Shown here: in pieces, positions 56 to 36,649 of the stretch
Position numbering within the stretch: the first letter of the stretch is position 1
Layout: each line of letters starts with the position of its first letter
From: a bacterium
Lineage (GTDB): Bacteria > Patescibacteriota > Minisyncoccia > Phycocordibacterales > UBA9973
Length of the DNA: 64,000 bases
NCBI GenBank assembly: GCA_037143195.1
Contig: JBAWZD010000002.1
Coordinates: 207,157-271,156 of the forward strand
Direction: 5' to 3'
Notes under the pieces: model-generated
What the model saw: only the letters and a program-made list of their open reading frames with translations
Database searches by the model: none
Told to the model about the DNA's origin: nothing
Translations under genes and position numbers: made by a program

Positions 56-373
56 ATGTCGGTTCGAGACCGAGTCGGTTCAAATTTTGCAGAAACCGCA
101 AAATATTTTTTGGTAGCAACATATTTTCTCGAATTTCAAAAGTTTGAGTTCAGGGCGGGTCAATACATATTCTTTGGTAACCAGTGGAAGTGCCTAATAA
201 ATGGGATTTATAGTATAATCATTGAACATATGTCAGTTTCTGAAGAAGAGCAGGATAATCTGAATCTCGAAGAATTGCGTCACGATTTTGATCGTGAATT
301 TGCCGAGTTTATTCAGATACTTACAGAGGAAGAGAAAAAGATTAATAACATTTTAGAAAAGATGCTGCCCTAA
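56..373 (+). CDS. small acidic hypothetical protein; real start probably the internal Met at 230 (MSVSEEEQ...), leaving a 2-nt gap to the next gene
   Basis: ORF track; acidic helical C-terminal half; promoter-like tataat around 213-218 argues against the longer form. Confidence 0.3.
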   Translation: MSVRDRVGSNFAETAKYFLVATYFLEFQKFEFRAGQYIFFGNQWKCLINGIYSIIIEHMSVSEEEQDNLNLEELRHDFDREFAEFIQILTEEEKKINNILEKMLP

Positions 374-6908: not shown

Positions 6909-8030
6909 ATGATAAACACTATTGGCATTATCGGTGGAGGCCAGCTTGGCAGAATGCTTACAGATGCGGCTCATCGTCTCGGTTTTAAAGTACTTATTCT
7001 TGATCCTGAGCCCAATTCTCCTGCCGGACAAGTCGCAGATGGACAAGTCGTAGGAGATTATAAAGACGAAAAAACAATTCTTGAGTTTTCAAAATCAGTT
7101 GACGTTATTACCTACGATATTGAAGGAGTGAGTGATCACGCTTTAGAATTACTTGAGCAGAGTGGATTTCAGGTTCATCCAACATCGAAAACACTTTCGA
7201 TTATTCGAGATAAGTTCACACAAAAAAAACTTCTGAATTCGGTCGGCATCCCCGTTGCAGATTTTATGGAAGTATCGACACCAGCTGATGCAGAGAGAGC
7301 AGGTGAGACATTCGGCTACCCATATATCCTCAAGGCTCGTACGGGAGGATTTGATGGAAGAGGTAATGCGAAAATACATTCACCGAGCGATATTGAACCT
7401 ATGTTTAGGGTGCTTGGCACAAATCTCTGCGCAGAAAAATTTATTCCTTTTGACAGGGAACTTGCAATTGTTGCGGCGAGAACGGTGCAAGGGGAGATTG
7501 CCGTTTTTCCTCTCGTGGAGACTGTCCACGAAGATCATATTTGTAAAATGACATTCACTCCGGCAAACGCGACGAATACTATTCGTGAAAAGGCGTCGTT
7601 GATTGCACAAAAAGTACTTGCTGCTTTTCTAGGTGCGGGTGTTTTTGCAATAGAATTGTTTTTGGTGGGGGATGATCTTCTTGTGAATGAGATTGCTCCT
7701 CGGGTGCACAACAGCGGACATTTTTCTATCGAGGCGTGTGTGACATCACAGTTTGAGCAGCACATACGAGCCATAACGGGGATGCCACTTGGTCCATCAG
7801 AAATGAAAGTTCCGTGTGCTGTCATGGTGAATATCCTTGGTACGCGTGATGGGATTTCGGAACCACGTGGCGTCGAAGAGGCGGAAAAAATTCCTGGTGT
7901 AACGGTGCATATCTATGGTAAATTACAGGTACAAAAAAAGCGAAAAATGGGACATATCACGGCAGTAGCAAGTACGAGAGAAGAAGCACAGCGGAACACA
8001 GAGAAAGCATTAGCGGCTATTACACTATGA
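6909..8030 (+). CDS. purK: N5-carboxyaminoimidazole ribonucleotide synthase (ATP-grasp)
   Basis: IGIIGGGQLGRM N-terminus, ATP-grasp layout, 4-bp overlap with purE. Confidence 0.9.
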   Translation: MINTIGIIGGGQLGRMLTDAAHRLGFKVLILDPEPNSPAGQVADGQVVGDYKDEKTILEFSKSVDVITYDIEGVSDHALELLEQSGFQVHPTSKTLSIIRDKFTQKKLLNSVGIPVADFMEVSTPADAERAGETFGYPYILKARTGGFDGRGNAKIHSPSDIEPMFRVLGTNLCAEKFIPFDRELAIVAARTVQGEIAVFPLVETVHEDHICKMTFTPANATNTIREKASLIAQKVLAAFLGAGVFAIELFLVGDDLLVNEIAPRVHNSGHFSIEACVTSQFEQHIRAITGMPLGPSEMKVPCAVMVNILGTRDGISEPRGVEEAEKIPGVTVHIYGKLQVQKKRKMGHITAVASTREEAQRNTEKALAAITL

Positions 8031-26104: not shown

Positions 26105-26761
26105 CTAGTGAGTGATTCCAGGAATAATAAAGAAACCGTACAATACGGCGCAGAAATTGAGTGCTGCGTGTGAGAGGATAATGAGTGGCAAACTTGGGTA
26201 ACGAAGATACATCACGGCAAACCCAATACCACCAACGAACGCGACTGGCAACCCGACCATCGGGTTTGGAAATATTGTATGCAAGAAAACGAAGATGAGT
26301 GTATTGGTAATGACAATCATCGGTACATTGCGTGAGAGTTTGCCGAGTGCCGGAATGAGATACCCACGATACGCAACTTCTTGAAAGAACGATACGACAA
26401 AAAAGAGATAGAGGAAATGACTGTGCGTCCACCAACGTTTGATCTCTTCATTTTTAATAATATATTCACCGAATCCAATCAGGAGGAGCATCATGATGAT
26501 GGTGAATGCGAGATAGGGGAGGAAGTATTTTTTTAGAGTGCTTCTTTCCAAGAAAAACATACTTGGCGTCCATTTTTCATACACCAGAATCCCCGTGAAG
26601 AGTGTCACCATACCGACAAGTACAAATACTCGATCAGTAATCGGGATAATCTTTGCGTAAATGAGAGCGACTGGGATGATAAAAACAAGCACGATTTGAA
26701 TGAAAATTTCTATTCGGCTTGTTTCGATGCGACGAATCGCATGACTGACGCTTCTATGCAT
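26105..26761 (-). CDS. CPBP (CAAX) family intramembrane metalloprotease
   Basis: EEVAYRGY and FLH motifs. Confidence 0.7.
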   Translation of the reverse strand: MHRSVSHAIRRIETSRIEIFIQIVLVFIIPVALIYAKIIPITDRVFVLVGMVTLFTGILVYEKWTPSMFFLERSTLKKYFLPYLAFTIIMMLLLIGFGEYIIKNEEIKRWWTHSHFLYLFFVVSFFQEVAYRGYLIPALGKLSRNVPMIVITNTLIFVFLHTIFPNPMVGLPVAFVGGIGFAVMYLRYPSLPLIILSHAALNFCAVLYGFFIIPGITH

Positions 26762-26794
26762 ATCGATTTTAGTATATCATGGTGCGTATTCAAT

Positions 26795-28135
26795 ATGACA
26801 GAGTCACCAAAGCTTAAAACATATGTATTTCACGTTCACGGAATGCACTGCCATTCATGTGTTCTTTTGACAGAAAGGGAGCTTGGTTCTCTCTCATCAG
26901 TTTCAAACATTAAGACAAGCCTGAAGGAACGGACCATCACGGTACACGCTGTGTCTTCTCTGGACGTAGAATCTATTTTGGAAGAATGTAATGAAAAACT
27001 TCGTTCGTATGGATACTCACTTTCGCTTCAGAAGGAACGTATCAAACAAAAGTTTTCAGAATTCATCGTGGCCATTCCCGTTGCAATTGGTTTTATTGCC
27101 TTGTTTCTTTTTTTACAAAAGATTGGATTGTTTCATTTTGGCACGACTGGAACAGTGACTTATGGTAGTGCTTTTATTATTGGACTCGTTGCCTCTGTTT
27201 CGACGTGCATGGCAATTGTCGGTGGTTTGGTGCTTTCACTTGGAGCGACGGTTGCAAAAGAAGGAAGGTCAATGCGTCCGCAAATACTTTTCCATAGTGG
27301 ACGCATCCTCTCGTTTTTTGTTTTCGGAGGTCTGATTGGAATGCTTGGTGAAATTTTTAGCATTGGAACGACTGCAACACTGTTTTTGAGTTTTCTTACT
27401 GGGTTTGTCATGCTCATTCTGGGCATCAATTTGCTCCATGTCTTTCATTGGTCCAAACGATTACAGTTTGTCATGCCAAAAGCATTATCTAAGCATGCAT
27501 TCGGAATGACACAATTGAATCACACCTTTACACCGTTTCTTATTGGTGTCGCGACGTTCTTCTTGCCATGTGGTTTTACTCAGGCAATGCAAGTATATAC
27601 TTTGACGGCCGGAGGATTTCTCCATGGCGGACTCATTATGGGTGCGTTTGCGCTCGGAACACTTCCCGTACTTGCAGGTATCTCCCTGAGTTCGTTTTCG
27701 ATTACGAATAGCCGGCACTCGGGAATGTTTTTTAAAACGGTTGGAATTGTTGTTATCTTTTTTGCATTGTTCACGTTGAGCAGTAGTCTTGCACTTACTG
27801 GTATTTCTGTGCCAACACTATCGTATTCTCGAGGGGCAAGTCTTGTGAAAAAAAATGTATATATTGTAGATGGAGTACAGGTAATTGCAATAAAAGCGGG
27901 TGAGGGGTATTCTCCAAGTACGACTATTGCAAAGGCTGGTATTCCAACTATTGTTCGATTTACTACGAATGGGTCACTTGATTGTTCGTCGTCTGTTCGG
28001 ATTCCGAGTTTGAATATGTCTCGTTTTTTGAATCTCAATGGCACGACAGATGTTGATCTTGGAATACCGAAAGTTGGGTTACTTGGAGGAATGTGTGGTA
28101 TGGGAATGTTTCCGTTCTCGATTGATTTTAAATAA
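26795..28135 (+). CDS. HMA-domain fused TauE/SafE-like membrane protein with C-terminal cupredoxin-like domain
   Basis: HGMHCHSCV metal-binding motif; polytopic core; start ATG 26795. Confidence 0.6.
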   Translation: MTESPKLKTYVFHVHGMHCHSCVLLTERELGSLSSVSNIKTSLKERTITVHAVSSLDVESILEECNEKLRSYGYSLSLQKERIKQKFSEFIVAIPVAIGFIALFLFLQKIGLFHFGTTGTVTYGSAFIIGLVASVSTCMAIVGGLVLSLGATVAKEGRSMRPQILFHSGRILSFFVFGGLIGMLGEIFSIGTTATLFLSFLTGFVMLILGINLLHVFHWSKRLQFVMPKALSKHAFGMTQLNHTFTPFLIGVATFFLPCGFTQAMQVYTLTAGGFLHGGLIMGAFALGTLPVLAGISLSSFSITNSRHSGMFFKTVGIVVIFFALFTLSSSLALTGISVPTLSYSRGASLVKKNVYIVDGVQVIAIKAGEGYSPSTTIAKAGIPTIVRFTTNGSLDCSSSVRIPSLNMSRFLNLNGTTDVDLGIPKVGLLGGMCGMGMFPFSIDFK

Positions 28136-29240: not shown

Positions 29241-29379
29241 GCTTGGGTTCGCAAAAAACAAAAAAGCACTTTTGAAAGTACCGGCGTAAATTTCTGAAGA
29301 AATTTCGCCTCACGCTCGCGCCGTCGCGCTCCGCGAGTACTTTCAAAAGTGCTTTTTTGTTTTTTGCGAACCCAAGCTT
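29239..29379. repeat. 141-bp palindromic terminator element A: perfect 43-bp outer arms spanning stop codon to stop codon of convergent genes, with GC-rich core homologous to the element at 58974-59096
   Basis: inverted repeat and core identity read directly. Confidence 0.7.
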
Positions 29380-29935
29380 ACTGCGTCTTCGCTGTCAGCG
29401 TACCTTTGTGCCACGGCGTGCCAAGAGCGGGAAGTGCCCAGTAATCAAGTCCGAGATATCCCACGACGCGCCACGCAAGGATGAGTCCAAGCGAAAGGAT
29501 AAGGAGCACGGGGTTTACGCTCACCGTTCCCGCGAGGAGATAGTTGAGATTCATAAAGAATCCAAAGAATGCGGCGATGCCAGCAAACAATCCAATGATG
29601 AGCGCAACACCGACGAGCACTTCGCCGTATGCAACGACGTGTGACCACAATGCTGCATGAGGAAGAATGGCGTGAGAGAGGAACCATCCATACCAACTTT
29701 GGACATCAGGATGGTCGCCAACAGTTTTGGCGAGGGCTGCTCGCAAAAATCCTGTAAGTGCGCCACCTGCTTGTCCACCAACCCACGCAGGTGAGTGGAC
29801 TTTGTCCAAGCCTGCTTCCAGCCATTGCCATCCGACATACACGCGGACGATGAGCCAGAACCAGGCGAACTTGGGACTTTGTAAAATAAACTGCGCGAAC
29901 TTTGGTTCTTCAATTACCTGTGAAGAAGTATTCAT
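29378..29935 (-). CDS. DoxX family membrane protein
   Basis: hydrophobic profile, DoxX-like N-terminus. Confidence 0.6.
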   Translation of the reverse strand: MNTSSQVIEEPKFAQFILQSPKFAWFWLIVRVYVGWQWLEAGLDKVHSPAWVGGQAGGALTGFLRAALAKTVGDHPDVQSWYGWFLSHAILPHAALWSHVVAYGEVLVGVALIIGLFAGIAAFFGFFMNLNYLLAGTVSVNPVLLILSLGLILAWRVVGYLGLDYWALPALGTPWHKGTLTAKTQ

Positions 29936-30139: not shown

Positions 30140-30688
30140 ATGGATACGAGAAAAAAATGGGCTCGCACACTTGGTGCATTTATGATTTGTTTGATTGTTC
30201 GATTGATTCCTGTTCGCGCTCCAAATGTTGAGCCTATACTCGCCGTACAGATGCCATTTGCGAAGCGATACGGCCCGCTCCTTGCGTTTTTGTTTGGGTT
30301 CGCGAGTATTCTCCTCTATGACATCATAACGAGCCGTGTGGGCATCTGGACGCTTATTACAGCCATTGCCTACGGAGCACTTGGAATTGCAAGTTCGCTC
30401 TATTTCAAACACCGTTCTGGTACCCGAAAACAGTTTGTGGCGTTCGCGATTGGTGCAACGATCCTCTATGACGCGATTACGGGGCTCACGATTGGACCAT
30501 TGTTCTTCCATCAGAGTTTTGTGACTTCGTTTGTCGGTCAAATTCCATTTACTGCATTCCACTTGCTCGGAAATATCCTCTTCGCTCTTGTACTCAGTCC
30601 TGCAATCAATCGTTACCTTACGTTTGATGATGCTCGAAGTCGTTCATTCGTCGAAAATCCAATTACAAATCCATCATTCATCTCATAA
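30140..30688 (+). CDS. membrane protein, possibly an ECF-transporter S component (CbrT-like), first gene of the nrdJ operon
   Basis: about 180 aa with 5-6 helices; context with B12-dependent RNR; 3-nt gap to nrdJ. Confidence 0.4.
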   Translation: MDTRKKWARTLGAFMICLIVRLIPVRAPNVEPILAVQMPFAKRYGPLLAFLFGFASILLYDIITSRVGIWTLITAIAYGALGIASSLYFKHRSGTRKQFVAFAIGATILYDAITGLTIGPLFFHQSFVTSFVGQIPFTAFHLLGNILFALVLSPAINRYLTFDDARSRSFVENPITNPSFIS

Positions 30689-30691
30689 CCT

Positions 30692-32968
30692 ATGAAAAAT
30701 CTCAAAAAATACTCTGCACTCAAAAGTATCCAGAAGCGCGACACTTCAATCGTTCCCTTTGATCCAAAGCGTATCGAACGCGCGCTCGCGCGCGCTATGG
30801 AAGTAGCGAACGAGGGAGGAAGTAAAGAGGCAGAGCATGTCATGTTCAAAGTGCTCGACACATTGCTTGCACTCAAAGCGGAAAAGAAGAACAAGAATTT
30901 CATTCCATTCGTTGAGACGATTCAAGACGTCGTTGAAAACGAACTCATTGCAGCAAATTTTTCACAGACAGCCAAGGCATACATTTTGTACCGTAAGGAG
31001 CGCTCGCTCGTGCGTGAGAAAGTTGGATTTGTTCCAGAGAAAGTCAAAGAGCTTGCAACTGAGAGTAAAAAATATTTCCGCAATCCGCTTGCAGAGTTTG
31101 TGTACTACCGCACCTACTCACGTTGGATCCCAGAAGAGGGACGTCGAGAGACATGGGTGGAGACCGTTGATCGTTACATGAGCTTCATGCGCGAGAACCT
31201 CGGTTCAGGTCTCACCGAAAAAGAATATGCAGAAGTCCGCGAGGCGATTCTTCGCCAAGAAGCAATGCCATCGATGCGCCTTTTGCAGTTTGCAGGCAAG
31301 CCCGCACGCCGCTCAAACGTGTGTGCGTACAACTGTTCATTCATTGCGCCTCGATCATTCCAAGATTTCGCTGAGATAATGTACATCTCCATGTGTGGTA
31401 CTGGAGTCGGCTGGAGTGCTGAAAGTGAAAATATTCAAGCGCTTCCACAAATCAAACGCCAGACAGGAAAGAAGCTTCCAACATATCTCGTGCCAGACAG
31501 CAAGGAAGGATGGGCAGATGCATTTAGCTTTGCGATGAAGACATGGTTTGATGGTAATGATGTTTCGTTCGACTACTCACTCATTCGTCCAGCAGGTTCA
31601 CGTCTCAAGACAATGGGAGGCAAGAGTTCTGGTCCAGAGCCACTTCGTTCATTGCTCGATTTCACTCGTGAGCGTATTCTTCGTCGCCAAGGACGTCACC
31701 TCACAAACCTCGATGCACACGACATCATGTGTAAGATTGGAGAATGTGTCGTTGCCGGTGGTGTTCGACGCAGTGCGATGATCTCGCTCTCTGATCTTGA
31801 TGACGAAGCAATTCGTGATTCAAAGAAAGGTCAGTTCTATCTCGCCGAAGCTCAGCGTATGCTCGCAAACAACTCTGCGGTCTACCTCGAGAAACCATCT
31901 GCATCAGAATTCCTCGATGAATGGGTCGCACTCATGAAGAGTGGATCAGGAGAGCGTGGTATTTTCAATCGCGGATCACTCGCAAAGACATTGCCAAAGC
32001 GTCGTCTTGATCAATGGAAAGATGGTATCTATCCATCATGGGGCACAAACCCATGTGGAGAAATCATTCTTCAGTCAAAACAATTCTGTAACTTGTCAGA
32101 AGTTGTTGCGCGCGCAGAAGACACACTCGAAGATCTCGAACGTAAGATTCGCGTTGCCACGATTCTCGGTACGTACCAATCAACACTCACATACTTCCCA
32201 TACCTTTCAAATGAATGGAAGCGCAATTGTGAGAAGGAACGTTTGCTCGGAGTTTCAATCACTGGTCAGTGGGATTCTTCAGTTGCACGTAAGCCAGAAG
32301 TACTTGAACGTCTCAAAACAGTTGCAGTTGATCTCAACAAGAAACTCGCAAAGCGTCTCGGTATCAATCAGTCACTCACTGTTACGTGTGTGAAGCCATC
32401 AGGCACAGTGTCACAGACAGTGGACTGCGCAAGTGGCATGCACCCACGTCATGCTCCATATTACATTCGTCGTGTTCGCATCTCTGCGAGTGATGCACTC
32501 TTCAAGATGCTCCGTGATCAGGGCGTGCCATATCTTCCAGAAGTTGGACAAACAATGGAAGGCGCATCAACATTCGTATTTGAATTCCCAATGAAGGCTC
32601 CAAATGGCGCAATTTGTCGCGATGATATCGACGCAATCAGACAGCTCGAACATTGGAAAGTCGTTAAAGTGAATTACACAGAACACAATCCATCCGTAAC
32701 TATTTCTGTCGGTGAAGATGAATGGATCAAGGTGGGCAACTGGGTCTATGAAAACTGGGATATCGTTGGAGGACTTTCATTCTTGCCACGCTCAAACCAT
32801 GTCTACCAGCTCGCACCATATGAATCCATCACCAAGGAGCAGTACGAAGCAATGCTCGGCAAGGTCTCGCATTTGGATTTCTCAAAGATTGTGACGTACG
32901 AGGTCGAGGACGAGACAGAAGTGAAGCGTGAGCTCGCCTGTGTCGCCGGAGTGTGTGATACCGCATAG
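30692..32968 (+). CDS. nrdJ: class II adenosylcobalamin-dependent ribonucleotide reductase
   Basis: ATP-cone N-terminus, NPCGEI active-site motif, size. Confidence 0.9.
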   Translation: MKNLKKYSALKSIQKRDTSIVPFDPKRIERALARAMEVANEGGSKEAEHVMFKVLDTLLALKAEKKNKNFIPFVETIQDVVENELIAANFSQTAKAYILYRKERSLVREKVGFVPEKVKELATESKKYFRNPLAEFVYYRTYSRWIPEEGRRETWVETVDRYMSFMRENLGSGLTEKEYAEVREAILRQEAMPSMRLLQFAGKPARRSNVCAYNCSFIAPRSFQDFAEIMYISMCGTGVGWSAESENIQALPQIKRQTGKKLPTYLVPDSKEGWADAFSFAMKTWFDGNDVSFDYSLIRPAGSRLKTMGGKSSGPEPLRSLLDFTRERILRRQGRHLTNLDAHDIMCKIGECVVAGGVRRSAMISLSDLDDEAIRDSKKGQFYLAEAQRMLANNSAVYLEKPSASEFLDEWVALMKSGSGERGIFNRGSLAKTLPKRRLDQWKDGIYPSWGTNPCGEIILQSKQFCNLSEVVARAEDTLEDLERKIRVATILGTYQSTLTYFPYLSNEWKRNCEKERLLGVSITGQWDSSVARKPEVLERLKTVAVDLNKKLAKRLGINQSLTVTCVKPSGTVSQTVDCASGMHPRHAPYYIRRVRISASDALFKMLRDQGVPYLPEVGQTMEGASTFVFEFPMKAPNGAICRDDIDAIRQLEHWKVVKVNYTEHNPSVTISVGEDEWIKVGNWVYENWDIVGGLSFLPRSNHVYQLAPYESITKEQYEAMLGKVSHLDFSKIVTYEVEDETEVKRELACVAGVCDTA

Positions 32969-32971
32969 TCT

Positions 32972-33541
32972 ATGCTGTATACCAGAAAAGGAGATAAAGG
33001 AACGACGAAACTCTTCGACTGTCCGCAAGGAACGCGGATGTCGAAGAGCGCCGTGACCTTTGAAGCGCTCGGAACACTCGACGAGTTGAATTCTTCGCTT
33101 GGATATGCCAAAGTGTTGGCTGCTCGTAGTGAGGCCCACCTCATGATGGCAGGAGAGAAGCATTTGTATACGTCGCTCATTGGGCGAATACAGAACATGC
33201 TTTTTACGACGCAGGCAGAGCTTGCGGGAGCGCAGAAACAAGTCACTGAAGCAGATGTGTTGTTTGAAGAACAGGTCATCGCCGAGGTTGAAAAAGATTT
33301 GCCACCGATTACGTCGTTTATCGTCGCAGGTGGTGGCGAGACGGGTGCGTATCTTGATGTCTGTCGTACGATTGCTCGACGTGCAGAACGCGGAGTGATC
33401 GACGCGATGGAGACAGACAAGCGTGCGGTGTCTGATGAGACATTAAAATTCTTGAATCGTCTCTCGAGTGTGCTCTACGCACTCGCTCGATATGCGAATC
33501 ATCAAGAAGGATTTGCGGAGCGTGCGCCAGAGTATAGTTGA
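32972..33541 (+). CDS. PduO-type ATP:cob(I)alamin adenosyltransferase
   Basis: TRKGDKGTT hallmark. Confidence 0.85.
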   Translation: MLYTRKGDKGTTKLFDCPQGTRMSKSAVTFEALGTLDELNSSLGYAKVLAARSEAHLMMAGEKHLYTSLIGRIQNMLFTTQAELAGAQKQVTEADVLFEEQVIAEVEKDLPPITSFIVAGGGETGAYLDVCRTIARRAERGVIDAMETDKRAVSDETLKFLNRLSSVLYALARYANHQEGFAERAPEYS

Positions 33542-33569
33542 GGGTGATGTGCGGTGCGATTACAAATGA

Positions 33570-33735
33570 ATAATCATGATTGGGGAAGTGAGGTGAAAAT
33601 CCTCCACAGTGCCGCTACGGTTATAGTCCGACTACCAATCATTGATGTAGTAATGAAACTTTTTGTTTCATCCCGAGCAGGAAATGGTCGCGCGTACGCG
33701 CGACCCCGGTACTCCTCTCCTCGGGGGAGTTTTTT
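33570..33735 (+). promoter_or_regulatory. candidate cobalamin riboswitch with terminator-type expression platform (hairpin plus TTTTTT at 33709-33734)
   Basis: GGGGAAg-tga-GGTGAAAATCC-tcca-CaGtgCCGCtACgGTtA matches the AdoCbl core GGGAA..GGUGnAAnUCC..CnGnCCCGCnACnGUnA; AGCAGGAAA resembles a degenerate B12 box. Confidence 0.6.
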
Positions 33736-33740
33736 AGTAT

Positions 33741-34160
33741 ATGAAAAAAAATAAGCAATGGTTCGTGGCGGGAGGAGTGCTGATTGTTTTGGTTCTTGTG
33801 ACGACGAGTATGTTTGCAGAGGTGCATCGATTTCAAAAAACGGTTCCGCAATCTGGAGCACCGATTTCATCGACGAATGATCCTCTCGTTTCGTTTGAAG
33901 CAGGGACTGTTCACCTCTCGCTTCCTTTCCGCGCGGGAGAGACGCTGTATGATGCGATGACTGACGCGAAGAACGCGGGCACACTTACATTTTCAGGCAA
34001 AGAATATTCTGGTCTCGGATATTTTGTCACAAGTGTTGGTTCTCTCTCTGAAGGAAACGGGAAGCACCTCATGTATTTTATTAATGACAAGGAAGCATCG
34101 GTTGGTGTTTCAACGTACGCTCCCAAAAACGGCGATACTATTATGTGGAAATTGAAGTAG
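33741..34160 (+). CDS. DUF4430-like secreted/anchored protein (transcobalamin beta-domain-like)
   Basis: signal anchor; riboswitch immediately upstream. Confidence 0.6.
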   Translation: MKKNKQWFVAGGVLIVLVLVTTSMFAEVHRFQKTVPQSGAPISSTNDPLVSFEAGTVHLSLPFRAGETLYDAMTDAKNAGTLTFSGKEYSGLGYFVTSVGSLSEGNGKHLMYFINDKEASVGVSTYAPKNGDTIMWKLK

Positions 34161-34163
34161 TCT

Positions 34164-36323
34164 ATGAAAATCATTCAAAAAATCTCACTCTGCGTGCTCA
34201 GTGTTCTCGTCGCATTTTCAGTTGTTTCATCAGTTCGCGCAGATGATGCAACTCCGCCAGCTGATACGACACCTCCAGTCATTACACTCGTGGGTGACGC
34301 CTCGGTTTCCATTTCACAAGGCGCGACATATACCGATAGCGGAGCGACCGCAAGCGATGATGTCGATGGTAATATCACTGCAAACATTCATGTTGCAGGC
34401 ACTGTTGATACAACGACCGCAGGTTCCTATACACTGACATATTCGGTGAGTGATGCTGCGGGGAATCCTGCCACTCCGGTCACGCGCACGGTCACAGTTA
34501 CACCTGTCGTGGTGGTTCATCCTCTGACAGAAACAGTGTTGATTCGTAATGGAAGTACGATTATCGATCAAGAAACAGTTTCGCTTCCAGCTTCTGGCAC
34601 GGTCACAATCACCGATGATGCTGGTGCGACGCATTCAGTGAATGCAGATAGTGTGCTCGGACTATTGTTTGCAATGAGTCAGGGCGGAACATTTTCGTTG
34701 TCTGATCTTACGTATTACAGCTCGTTTAGTTCACTCTACCTAAAGTGTCTTACTCCAAATGGTGGAAGTGCGCTCTGTGACAATTGGCAATTCGTCGTCG
34801 GTGGTACATCGCCATGGACGAGTATTGATCAGACAATTCTTTCAGGAGGGGAGACAGTTGGTCTGTATTTTGGATCATCACACAGAGTGCGTTTTGATAC
34901 GACACAGGTAACGACTGGCGGATCCGTACATGCAACAGCAGAACAATACAACTATCTCGACAATTCATGGAGTCCACTCACCGGTGTCTCTGTTGGGGTG
35001 ACTGTACCAAATCCAAACGATCCATACAATCCGACAGTCGTGAGTTCTGTTCCTGTCGATGCACAGGGAAATGCAACTCTCTCGTTTCCAAACAGTGGCA
35101 CATTTTCTGTCGGTGTTGTCGAAGACTATTATTTCCCATCATATACCGTGACAGCAACTGCAGCTGTACAAACGAGTGGTGGTGGAGGTGGTTCGGGTGG
35201 TGGGGTGCTGCTTGAAACAACTTCGCCCCAAAAAACTGCGCTCGTGTTGAACACACAAAATGCTTTTACGTTTTTGAAACAAAATCAGAATACTGACGGC
35301 TCTTTCTCTGGCGGTGATATGTATACCGATTGGGCAGGCGTTGCATTTGGCGCGATTGATAAGAATCAAACGGATCCTGCAACACAGAAATTGATTCAGT
35401 ACTTGAGTACACACGCACTCGTTAAACCACGCTTGACTGACTATGAACGTCGCGCGATTGCAGAACTTGCACTTGGACAAAATCCATACACATTCGGCGG
35501 TGTTGATGTCGTTACGCCTGTCGTACAATCGTTTGACGGAACACAATTTGGCGATGCCAATTTGATCAACGATGATGTGTTTGCGCTCATCGCGCTTGAA
35601 AGTGCTGGCTACACGAGTAGTGATGCACTCATCGCAAAAGATGTTGCATATATTCTTTCGAAACAAGGCACCGATGGATCATGGGAGGCAGGTGTCGATA
35701 TGACTTCAGCTACCGTGCAGGCACTCAGCCCGCTCGCAAGTGTGAATGGTGTTTCGGACGCACTCAAAAATGCGTCGACATATCTGGCGCAGAGTGAGGC
35801 GAGTGATGGAGGATTCGGTTCTGCATATACGACGAGTTGGGTTGCACAAGCGATGAATGTTTTGAAAGCATCATGGACAAAGAACGGACATGATGCGCTT
35901 GGATTCCTCGCAGGTTCCCAACAAACTGACGGAGGACTTTTGCTCGCAAGTGACACGATGCCAAATCGTATTTGGGCAACGAGTTATGCTATCCCTGCAG
36001 GTCTCGGACTTTCATGGAATGCGGTTTTGCACTCAGTCGCGCGACCTGTTGTTGCGCCGAAACTTGATCAGACTGTTGCACCTGTTTCAAAAACAGTTTC
36101 GTCAGTCGGCGAGAATGATGGAGCGAAACCAAAACAAAGTGCGCGACACAATCTTGGGGCACTATCCACCGCTCTTGCCGTCCAAGCCCTCGAAAATCCG
36201 ACCCAAACATCGACGCAAAACGCACCGCAAACACCGGCCGAACAGTCACATCCAAAAAAGACATTCAAACAATCAGTAATTGCAATTTGGCATACCTTGG
36301 TACATACTCTTACATCATGGTAA
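34164..36323 (+). CDS. large secreted protein: signal peptide, DUF5011-like Ig domain, Gly linker, alpha/alpha-toroid (prenyltransferase/transcobalamin alpha-domain-like) repeats
   Basis: repeated TDGSF/TDGSW/SDGGF/TDGGL motifs; GGGGGSGGG linker. Confidence 0.6.
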   Translation: MKIIQKISLCVLSVLVAFSVVSSVRADDATPPADTTPPVITLVGDASVSISQGATYTDSGATASDDVDGNITANIHVAGTVDTTTAGSYTLTYSVSDAAGNPATPVTRTVTVTPVVVVHPLTETVLIRNGSTIIDQETVSLPASGTVTITDDAGATHSVNADSVLGLLFAMSQGGTFSLSDLTYYSSFSSLYLKCLTPNGGSALCDNWQFVVGGTSPWTSIDQTILSGGETVGLYFGSSHRVRFDTTQVTTGGSVHATAEQYNYLDNSWSPLTGVSVGVTVPNPNDPYNPTVVSSVPVDAQGNATLSFPNSGTFSVGVVEDYYFPSYTVTATAAVQTSGGGGGSGGGVLLETTSPQKTALVLNTQNAFTFLKQNQNTDGSFSGGDMYTDWAGVAFGAIDKNQTDPATQKLIQYLSTHALVKPRLTDYERRAIAELALGQNPYTFGGVDVVTPVVQSFDGTQFGDANLINDDVFALIALESAGYTSSDALIAKDVAYILSKQGTDGSWEAGVDMTSATVQALSPLASVNGVSDALKNASTYLAQSEASDGGFGSAYTTSWVAQAMNVLKASWTKNGHDALGFLAGSQQTDGGLLLASDTMPNRIWATSYAIPAGLGLSWNAVLHSVARPVVAPKLDQTVAPVSKTVSSVGENDGAKPKQSARHNLGALSTALAVQALENPTQTSTQNAPQTPAEQSHPKKTFKQSVIAIWHTLVHTLTSW

Positions 36324-36649
36324 GGATCTTAAACAAGATCATCAAAAAGATTAAACAACCGCTCCCACGCACGGCCTACCGTCGCAATGCCGAAATCTAC
36401 AAAGTCCTTGCAAATCCAAAGCGATTAGAGATTCTTGACCTGCTCCGCGAACAAGAAATGTGCTGTGACGAGCTCGTCCGAATTCTTGGAGTTTCAAAAG
36501 CAAACATCTCCCAACATCTCGCACTTTTGCGAAATGCCAATCTCGTCTCCGTGCGTCGCGAGGGAGTCAACGGCTATTATCGCATCATCGACCCCGCCGT
36601 CATCGAGCCGTGTCGCGTTTTGTATCGACTTGCTCAAGAGGGGAAATAG
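36317..36649 (+). CDS. ArsR/SmtB family transcriptional regulator
   Basis: HTH CDELVRILGVSKANISQHLALL. Confidence 0.8.
   Translation: MVRILNKIIKKIKQPLPRTAYRRNAEIYKVLANPKRLEILDLLREQEMCCDELVRILGVSKANISQHLALLRNANLVSVRREGVNGYYRIIDPAVIEPCRVLYRLAQEGK

Follow-up and report, generated by a model that had tools for sequence, protein, structure and literature searches.

A putative two-tier locus for vitamin B12 capture and use, carrying a cobalamin riboswitch, in a Patescibacteria-type bacterium

Secreted bacterial proteins combining an SLBB domain with an alpha/alpha toroid, which may lie on either side of it, were described by Burroughs, Balaji, Iyer and Aravind (2007, Biol Direct 2:4, PMC1796856). 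Such proteins often carry Ig-fold domains, and their operons often hold a second, paralogous SLBB gene. They were found in organisms lacking B12 synthesis, a role in B12 scavenging was predicted for them, and they were proposed as the source of animal transcobalamin. In the B12 auxotroph Lactobacillus delbrueckii the genes nrdJ, cbrS, cbrT and pduO form a cluster, and the energy-coupling factor (ECF) transporter ECF-CbrT transports both cobalamin and cobinamide (Santos et al. 2018 eLife, PMC5997447, PDB 6FNP). The L. sakei genes lsa1836-1840 encode an ECF S component (ECF-S), EcfAA' and EcfT along with the secreted proteins Lsa1839, which is beta-like, and Lsa1840, which is alpha-like (bioRxiv 10.1101/864751). 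Here we analyze a locus with features of these systems in a bacterium of the candidate phyla radiation (CPR, Patescibacteria). It lies in a stretch of 64,000 nucleotides (64 kb) of contig JBAWZD010000002.1, the whole of which is called the window below.

Our analysis suggests that this is a two-tier locus for the acquisition and use of B12 in a CPR/Patescibacteria-type bacterium, and we consider it likely that its surface proteins serve corrinoid capture specifically. That the locus has some B12-related role is, in our judgement, very probable. Its five open reading frames (ORFs) are all on the + strand, with spacers of 3, 3, 199 and 3 nt (Table 1), and lie exactly where they had been placed by the original prediction, a reading of this DNA by a model that ran no database searches. 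The tight operon which that reading saw in the first three genes is borne out by the first two spacers.

Table 1. Features of the locus, in window coordinates, and domains of the 719-aa protein, in residues
Feature	Position	Strand	Basis
182-aa polytopic membrane protein, ECF S-component family, CbrT-like, candidate corrinoid transporter	30140..30688	+	PF07155
758-aa class II (adenosylcobalamin-dependent) ribonucleotide reductase, RTPR type by sequence, N-terminal ATP-cone	30692..32968	+	Pfam, TIGR02505, 1L1L
189-aa PduO-type ATP:cob(I)alamin adenosyltransferase	32972..33541	+	PF01923, TIGR00636
Cobalamin riboswitch aptamer, RF01689 AdoCbl-II, clan CL00101	33563..33645	+	covariance model
Invariant expression-platform element UCCCGAGCAGGAA, candidate anti-terminator or ligand-dependent docking strand	33671..33683	+	alignment of 10 loci
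Terminator-like hairpin and U-run, Shine-Dalgarno sequence in 3' arm	33708..33736 (hairpin 33708-33731)	+	terminator scan, RNA fold
139-aa protein, N-terminal membrane anchor and SLBB/DUF4430 (transcobalamin beta-like) domain	33741..34160	+	PF14478
719-aa secreted multidomain protein, Ig, SLBB, beta-sandwich and toroid	34164..36323	+	Pfam, AlphaFold2 model
ArsR/SmtB-family helix-turn-helix regulator gene	36317..36649	+	HTH_5 E = 6.8e-17; NF033788 E = 1e-25
719-aa protein, signal peptide	residues 1-26		
719-aa protein, Ig-like domain	residues 39-113		
719-aa protein, SLBB/transcobalamin-beta-like domain, beta-rich with one helix	residues ~120-236		
719-aa protein, beta-sandwich	residues 240-332		
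719-aa protein, Gly-rich linker	residues 338-356		
719-aa protein, all-alpha alpha/alpha toroid	residues 364-621		
719-aa protein, disordered tail	residues 631-700		
719-aa protein, short amphipathic C-terminal helix	residues 702-718		

The aptamer matches RF01689 over the full model (positions 1-81 of 81) with 55.4 bits, against a gathering threshold (GA) of 36.5, and E = 8e-11. A cobalamin riboswitch had been predicted at this place, and a full-length one is present, but it belongs to RF01689 and not, as had been named, to the clan-mate RF00174. It is the sole gathering-level match in an Rfam scan of the whole window, which gave no tRNA, rRNA or other family.

We examined 84 related loci, and the Rfam scans covered the window and 48 of them (49 sequences, ~676 kb). 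Of the 49 sequences, 37 have a riboswitch of the B12 clan that reaches the gathering threshold, on the coding strand and immediately upstream of the DUF4430 gene, and one more related locus has a sub-threshold match. No B12-clan riboswitch was found in the scanned sequence away from the pair formed by the DUF4430 gene and the toroid gene. Three families, RF01689, RF01482 and RF00174, are represented at these loci. The DUF4430 gene stands directly upstream of the toroid gene in ~76 of the 84 loci, and the exceptions are mostly cut at contig ends. Since the arrangement of riboswitch, DUF4430 gene and toroid gene recurs in dozens of independent metagenomic loci, it is not due to chance, and the presence of three aptamer classes on one gene pair is the strongest evidence that the function of the pair concerns corrinoids. 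The genes for the ribonucleotide reductase (RNR) and the S component lie no more than 4 kb upstream in ~38 of the 84 loci and a PduO gene in ~17, while in about half of the loci the pair is found alone among unrelated housekeeping genes. Relatives of the 719-aa protein in the database number 1,165, and essentially all of them belong to CPR lineages (Nomurabacteria, Paceibacteria and Saccharibacteria-labelled metagenome-assembled genomes). A contig scan with a single protein as the query gave 4 loci, and a homolog search with the 139-aa protein gave 4 matches, a number limited by the word index.

The 719-aa protein had been predicted to be secreted and to have an Ig domain with DGSF, DGSW and DGGF motifs. 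We found the signal peptide, the Ig-like domain (PF16403, E = 4.5e-23) and the three motifs, and an AlphaFold2 model built on 48 homologs has a mean predicted local distance difference test score (pLDDT) of 84. The middle SLBB domain, when modelled alone, reaches a pLDDT of 89.6 and a predicted template modelling score (pTM) of 0.84. Its top 19 Foldseek matches in the PDB are all beta domains of transcobalamin, intrinsic factor or haptocorrin, or the R. gnavus structure 3U7Z. Against the isolated beta domains TMt is 0.61-0.66; the scores then drop sharply, and only generic ubiquitin-like folds follow at E > 0.1. Using hhalign, the domain aligns in register with the DUF4430 family from the related loci (E = 9e-5), the beta-sandwich and the toroid serving as negative controls (E = 0.2-0.4). 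The domain itself has no Pfam match; in P0092 and P0117, which are more divergent homologs, the same middle position matches Pfam DUF4430 above the threshold, with 31.9 and 34.7 bits, respectively. The structural matches, the profile alignment and the Pfam matches of the homologs agree, and we conclude that the 719-aa protein holds both transcobalamin folds, the beta before the alpha.

This result bears on the proposal of a split, transcobalamin-like B12-capture module, with the small protein as the beta half and the large one as the alpha half. The reading as B12 capture is well supported, but "split" is inaccurate, as the large protein has a beta-like SLBB domain of its own, which rules out the division into two halves. 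P0092 and P0117 were also considered as C-terminal fusions of toroid and DUF4430 (a Rosetta-stone case) and were rejected, their DUF4430 match being N-terminal to the toroid, in the position of the middle domain.

The predicted alpha/alpha toroid is present and scores above GA for SQHop_cyclase_C (PF13243, 31.1-33 bits, GA 26.1), with Prenyltrans at E = 0.016, but the expected link to the cobalamin-binding family PF01122 was not found in the 719-aa protein. Three homologs, i.e. P0080, P0083 and P0095, marginally pass PF01122 (25.4-29.1 bits, threshold 25) over ~50-75 residues only. Direct sequence homology between the toroid of the 719-aa protein and the transcobalamin alpha domain was not found, the likeness being at the level of the fold, along with these three marginal homologs. 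Across its family the toroid has an invariant N469-D470-D471-x-F473 motif and the invariant residues Y387, D389, W390, E428, R429, Q461, W507, W559, Q586, W604, Y608 and W618. The middle SLBB domain has the invariant cysteines C195 and C205, which probably form a disulfide, and then W208. These residues in the two domains are candidates for the ligand pocket.

The 139-aa protein matches DUF4430 (PF14478), as had been predicted, with 50.2 bits (GA 23.8) over residues 66-139, and its only matches among PDB sequences are transcobalamin beta domains (best E = 0.006). It is a second, extra SLBB paralog beside the SLBB domain of the 719-aa protein. An N-terminal hydrophobic anchor is found in 61 of 65 small DUF4430 orthologs and an N-terminal signal sequence in 46 of 48 large proteins, and hence both proteins are predicted to be extracytoplasmic, the small one probably being tethered to the membrane. 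In 33 of the 48 large homologs there is also a hydrophobic C-terminal transmembrane segment with a basic tail, preceded by an 'L(S/T)A(S/T)A..S...IP.P'-like motif (P0004, P0005, P0008, P0017, P0047, P0082, P0118 and others) that looks like a sorting or anchoring signal. The 719-aa protein and its closest relative, P0002, end instead in the amphipathic SVIAIWHTLVHTLTSW, and a C-terminal transmembrane anchor is not supported for the 719-aa protein (Kyte-Doolittle 0.55).

The three upstream genes had been read as a possible ECF S component, a class II nrdJ dependent on adenosylcobalamin (AdoCbl) and a PduO-type adenosyltransferase with a TRKGDKGTT motif, and the profile searches agree with all three assignments. 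The 182-aa protein matches the ECF S component family PF07155 with 34.3 bits (GA 26.7), as do 14 of the 15 members of its family, and DUF6580 with 28.7 bits (GA 27). A phmmer search of the PDB leads to ECF S components, namely 4HZU_S (E = 0.0044) and the B12-specific CbrT (6FNP_A, E = 0.006). The profile of its family has CbrT as the sole credible PDB match (E = 0.029), aligned nearly end to end (residues 13-149 against 17-157). The family has more than 2,200 database matches, of which the top ones are all from CPR and several are named 'ECF transporter S component' by NCBI. The protein appears to be CbrT-like, and a putative specificity for cobalamin is suggested by the nrdJ/pduO context together with the marginal similarity to CbrT.

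The 758-aa protein has the Pfam domains ATP-cone, RNR_Alpha, RNR-II_ins_dom and Ribonuc_red_lgC (the barrel), and its B12-RNR insertion domain (PF21995) is above GA. It scores 299 bits (E = 6e-89) against TIGR02505 RTPR, below the equivalog cutoff of 340 bits, and its best solved relative is the L. leichmannii RTPR 1L1L (E = 1.3e-51). Judged by sequence, this is a class II RNR of a divergent, RTPR-like kind that carries an additional ATP-cone. The 189-aa protein matches PF01923 with E = 7.5e-46 and 156.7 bits (cutoff 24) and TIGR00636 PduO_Nterm with 145 bits (cutoff 108), and it has the TRKGDKGTT motif.

The end of the aptamer is followed by 95 nt up to the ATG of the DUF4430 gene. The Shine-Dalgarno (SD) sequence of this gene, GGGGGAG, is inside the 3' arm of the terminator hairpin, 10 nt before the ATG, and the hairpin would serve both as the terminator and as the SD sequestrator in the OFF state. 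At least 13 related loci, from two riboswitch classes, share this design: their hairpin has an SD-like 3' arm and a U-run, and the start codon follows after 4-21 nt. Class II cobalamin aptamers can prefer small upper ligands.

Between the aptamer and the hairpin lies an invariant element, UCCCGAGCAGGAA, which starts 26 nt downstream of the aptamer match and is outside the 81-nt model of RF01689. It is unchanged in an alignment of 10 loci while the neighbouring hairpins vary. Of 85 loci, 64 have a single exact copy of an 11-mer of the element, on the + strand. Among the 68 eligible loci, 56 have the 11-mer no more than 900 nt ahead of the DUF4430 domain, in 51 distinct versions, where 0.4 would be expected by chance. 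We also observed that, among the window and the loci L002-L085, the 12-mer of this element accompanies aptamers from each of the three Rfam classes, either at their 3' edge or further downstream. In the minimum free energy fold the invariant strand CCCGAGCAGGA is paired with the 5' arm and loop of the terminator, and we propose that it is an anti-terminator which the ligand-bound aptamer would capture. As the element is invariant, covariation is unable to test any proposed pairing.

A promoter of its own for the riboswitch unit is not supported, with no sigma-70-like site on the + strand of 33400-33560. Neither a sigma-70-like promoter nor a terminator was found between the stop codon of the PduO gene and the aptamer, and hence the riboswitch may act as an intra-operonic attenuator, with read-through from the upstream operon into the capture genes being gated by B12.

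Based on these observations we propose the following working model. The first tier (30140-33541) has no riboswitch of its own, and its genes would be transcribed regardless of B12, the read-through to the capture genes alone being B12-gated. In this tier the CbrT-like protein would import the corrinoid, PduO would convert it to AdoCbl, and the RTPR-type RNR would use the AdoCbl to supply deoxyribonucleoside triphosphates (dNTPs). The second tier (33563-36323, perhaps including the ArsR gene) would be gated by the cobalamin riboswitch. When B12 is replete, ligand binding would let the terminator form and occlude the SD sequence, and expression would be off. When B12 is scarce, the invariant CCCGAGCAGGAA strand would pair with the 5' arm of the terminator and both surface proteins would be made. 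The large secreted protein, with its SLBB domain and toroid, and the anchored small SLBB protein would then take up position as a capture device for corrinoids that are in short supply outside the cell, handing them over to the transporter in the membrane.

Several observations weigh against this explanation. Corrinoid binding is a prediction for every bacterial member of the SLBB plus toroid family. By sequence the toroid is nearest to squalene-hopene cyclase repeats (family profile against 1GSZ, E = 2e-12), terpene cyclases rank slightly above the cobalamin carriers in its structural comparison, and its segment in the 719-aa protein has no PF01122 match at E <= 5. The interdomain geometry of the 719-aa model is uncertain (pTM 0.48), and a transcobalamin-like sandwich of the two folds thus remains putative. 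The similarity of the S component to CbrT is marginal (E = 0.006-0.03). No EcfA/EcfT energizing module and no ORF with an ATP-binding cassette (ABC) signature was found in the window, and those related loci that were inspected have no ABC-signature ORF beside the S-component gene. An energizing module encoded elsewhere is the norm for group II S components.

The riboswitch is also not detectable in 12 of the 49 loci. One of these is L003 (Saccharibacteria-labelled), in which the synteny is complete, i.e. S component, RNR, PduO, DUF4430, toroid and ArsR; its 190-nt spacer (7336-7528) has no Rfam match even at E <= 1, and the riboswitch has either been lost or become too divergent to detect. The copy of the 11-mer in L003 was considered as a sign of a riboswitch and rejected, as it is inside a coding sequence and is a chance match.

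A further objection concerns the ligand. The authors of the homologous L. sakei system argue for heme uptake (bioRxiv 10.1101/864751), the reviewers of Burroughs 2007 warned that SLBB ligands may be diverse (PMC1796856), and CbrT carries cobinamide besides cobalamin (PMC5997447). The same folds could bind a different tetrapyrrole or cofactor in place of cobalamin, be it heme or some precursor or analogue among the corrinoids (cobinamide, pseudo-B12), as proposed for Lsa1839/1840. We regard this as unlikely. The B12 riboswitches, in 37 of the 49 loci and of three classes, tie the expression of the pair to corrinoid status, and the neighbours are nrdJ and pduO, with no heme-related genes found at the loci. 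A corrinoid analogue or precursor is compatible with the data and overlaps the B12-capture explanation.

Alternatively, the 719-aa protein could be an enzyme outside the cell or a protein of the envelope, terpene-cyclase/prenyltransferase-like or a glycan-acting (alpha/alpha)6 protein, with an expression that is only coupled to B12 status, e.g. for B12-independent envelope remodelling or host attachment, while the SLBB domains bind a polysaccharide or another soluble ligand. The catalytic DxDD motif, though, is absent: the toroid of the 719-aa protein has no D.DD and reads INDD, and 43 of the 48 homologs lack it too. The model has one toroid domain of ~260 residues and not the beta-gamma didomain of class II cyclases, and for both SLBB domains nothing but beta domains of cobalamin carriers is matched ahead of the sharp drop in score. 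The known targets of B12 riboswitches are B12 transport, B12 biosynthesis and B12-independent isozymes, and a secreted cyclase fits none of these classes. All this makes an enzyme or envelope protein quite improbable. Least convincing is that the surface proteins only sequester or store B12, hoarding it against a host or neighbours with no hand-off to the S component: the lack of an ECF energizing module in the window, the position of the pair away from the S component among housekeeping genes in about half of the loci, and the C-terminal transmembrane segments holding many homologs at the surface would fit, but repression by B12 through an OFF-type platform is the logic of uptake induced by scarcity, AdoCbl is required by the RNR of the organism, and ~38 loci have the S-component and PduO genes as neighbours, so that we give this idea very little credence.

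We speculate that the B12-capture explanation could be extended to the lineage. CPR/Patescibacteria that have no B12 synthesis and obtain all their DNA precursors through an AdoCbl-dependent RNR may widely use a relay of three modules, in which a permuted single-chain SLBB-toroid protein captures corrinoids from hosts or neighbours, a tethered SLBB protein shuttles them, and a solitary CbrT-like S component imports them, possibly without an ECF ATPase, the intra-operonic riboswitch with CCCGAGCAGGAA inducing the capture tier only. At present we find this extension rather doubtful. If true, it would offer the first tractable bacterial model for the working and origin of transcobalamin-type carriers, and a B12 dependency that could be exploited for CPR cultivation.

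The ArsR gene overlaps the stop codon of the toroid gene by 7 nt, and an ArsR homolog is found downstream of the toroid gene in ~10 related loci (e.g. L002, L003, L007, L015, L048 and L053). It is possibly co-transcribed with the toroid gene and may be co-regulated by the riboswitch. Fusions of SLBB and ArsR were mentioned as possible B12 sensors by Burroughs 2007 (PMC1796856), whereas the ArsR protein of the window has no SLBB domain. In two related loci an extra ORF of ~200 aa is present between the riboswitch and the DUF4430 gene (L027 5705-6295 and L047 5323-5934); its N-terminus, like MFFNRRQFLV..., resembles a twin-arginine translocation (Tat) signal, and it could belong to the regulon as well. 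A divergent gene for a DoxX/DoxD-family membrane protein lies upstream of the S-component gene both in the window (29378-29935, - strand) and in the distant relative L003 (3211-3756, - strand). The window also encodes, at 26696-28135 (+ strand), a 479-aa membrane protein with several transmembrane segments and an N-terminal heavy-metal-associated-like CxxC motif (HVHGMHCHSCV). The window has a GC content of 45%, and the locus one of 48%.

The concept of bacterial B12 scavenging by such proteins is not new, and the value of the locus is confirmatory and lineage-extending. If the proteins bind corrinoids, it would give the cleanest genomic argument yet that the SLBB plus toroid proteins predicted in 2007 are B12-capture devices. 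The convergence of three riboswitch classes in dozens of genomes speaks to the ambiguity between heme and B12 that the L. sakei system left. The locus also points to a nutritional dependency of CPR, from B12 through AdoCbl and RNR to dNTPs, which bears on their episymbiotic lifestyle and cultivation. Its compact, soluble domains would lend themselves to examining a bacterial analogue of transcobalamin by biochemistry and structure for the first time.

In comparison with mammalian transcobalamin, intrinsic factor and haptocorrin, which combine PF01122 with a DUF4430-type beta domain, the 719-aa protein likewise has both folds in one chain, but in reversed order. In the mammalian carriers an N-terminal alpha6/alpha6 toroid and a C-terminal beta domain enclose one cobalamin between them. 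The 719-aa protein has a beta-sandwich and a long Gly-rich linker between the two folds, an additional Ig domain, and a further SLBB protein at its side. It has no PF01122 match and is closer in sequence to squalene-cyclase-type repeats. The Bacteroides proteins BtuG and BtuH are reportedly riboswitch-regulated surface lipoproteins with a high affinity for B12, which they deliver to a transporter in the membrane. Their functional logic is alike, but the folds are unrelated (BtuG is a beta-propeller), they act together with BtuB at the outer membrane of diderm cells, and they are not known to be homologous to the proteins of the window.

The L. delbrueckii cluster shares with the window the clustering of an RTPR-type nrdJ, a small S-component gene and PduO. 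It differs in that the likeness of the window protein to CbrT is marginal, the CPR RNR has an ATP-cone, and a downstream SLBB/toroid pair gated by a riboswitch has not been described for the Lactobacillus cluster. With L. sakei the common point is the proposed mechanism, extracellular capture followed by hand-off to an S component. In L. sakei each protein of the pair has a single domain, so that the split there is genuine, and a full ECF module accompanies the pair, for which the authors favour heme; the large protein of the window carries SLBB, toroid, Ig and beta-sandwich domains, with a B12 riboswitch and no EcfA/EcfT nearby.

The closest match is with the proteins of Burroughs 2007, of which the window shares every listed feature: the SLBB domain with the toroid, the Ig domain and the second SLBB paralog. 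Theirs are from Firmicutes and some euryarchaea and lie beside CbiO/CbiQ-like genes, while ours are from CPR with no ABC/ECF module nearby. The pair studied here is gated by a B12 riboswitch, a point not discussed there, and about half of the loci adjoin nrdJ, pduO and a cbrT-like gene. The original prediction knew of no description of this arrangement for small-genome bacteria. We found no description in the open-access literature that joins CPR/Patescibacteria with cobalamin and a riboswitch or RNR, and its presence in CPR seems not to have been reported so far in the searchable literature, but the design is known from Burroughs 2007, L. sakei and L. delbrueckii, and in this respect the novelty was overstated. 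The locus thus extends to a new lineage a design for B12 scavenging that had earlier been predicted for Gram-positive bacteria. It is distinguished from the earlier examples by its Ig-SLBB-sandwich-toroid architecture, by the near-universal gating by B12 riboswitches with a strand invariant across the lineage, by the absence of an adjacent ECF module, and by the frequent joining of the pair with an nrdJ/pduO/cbrT-like operon.

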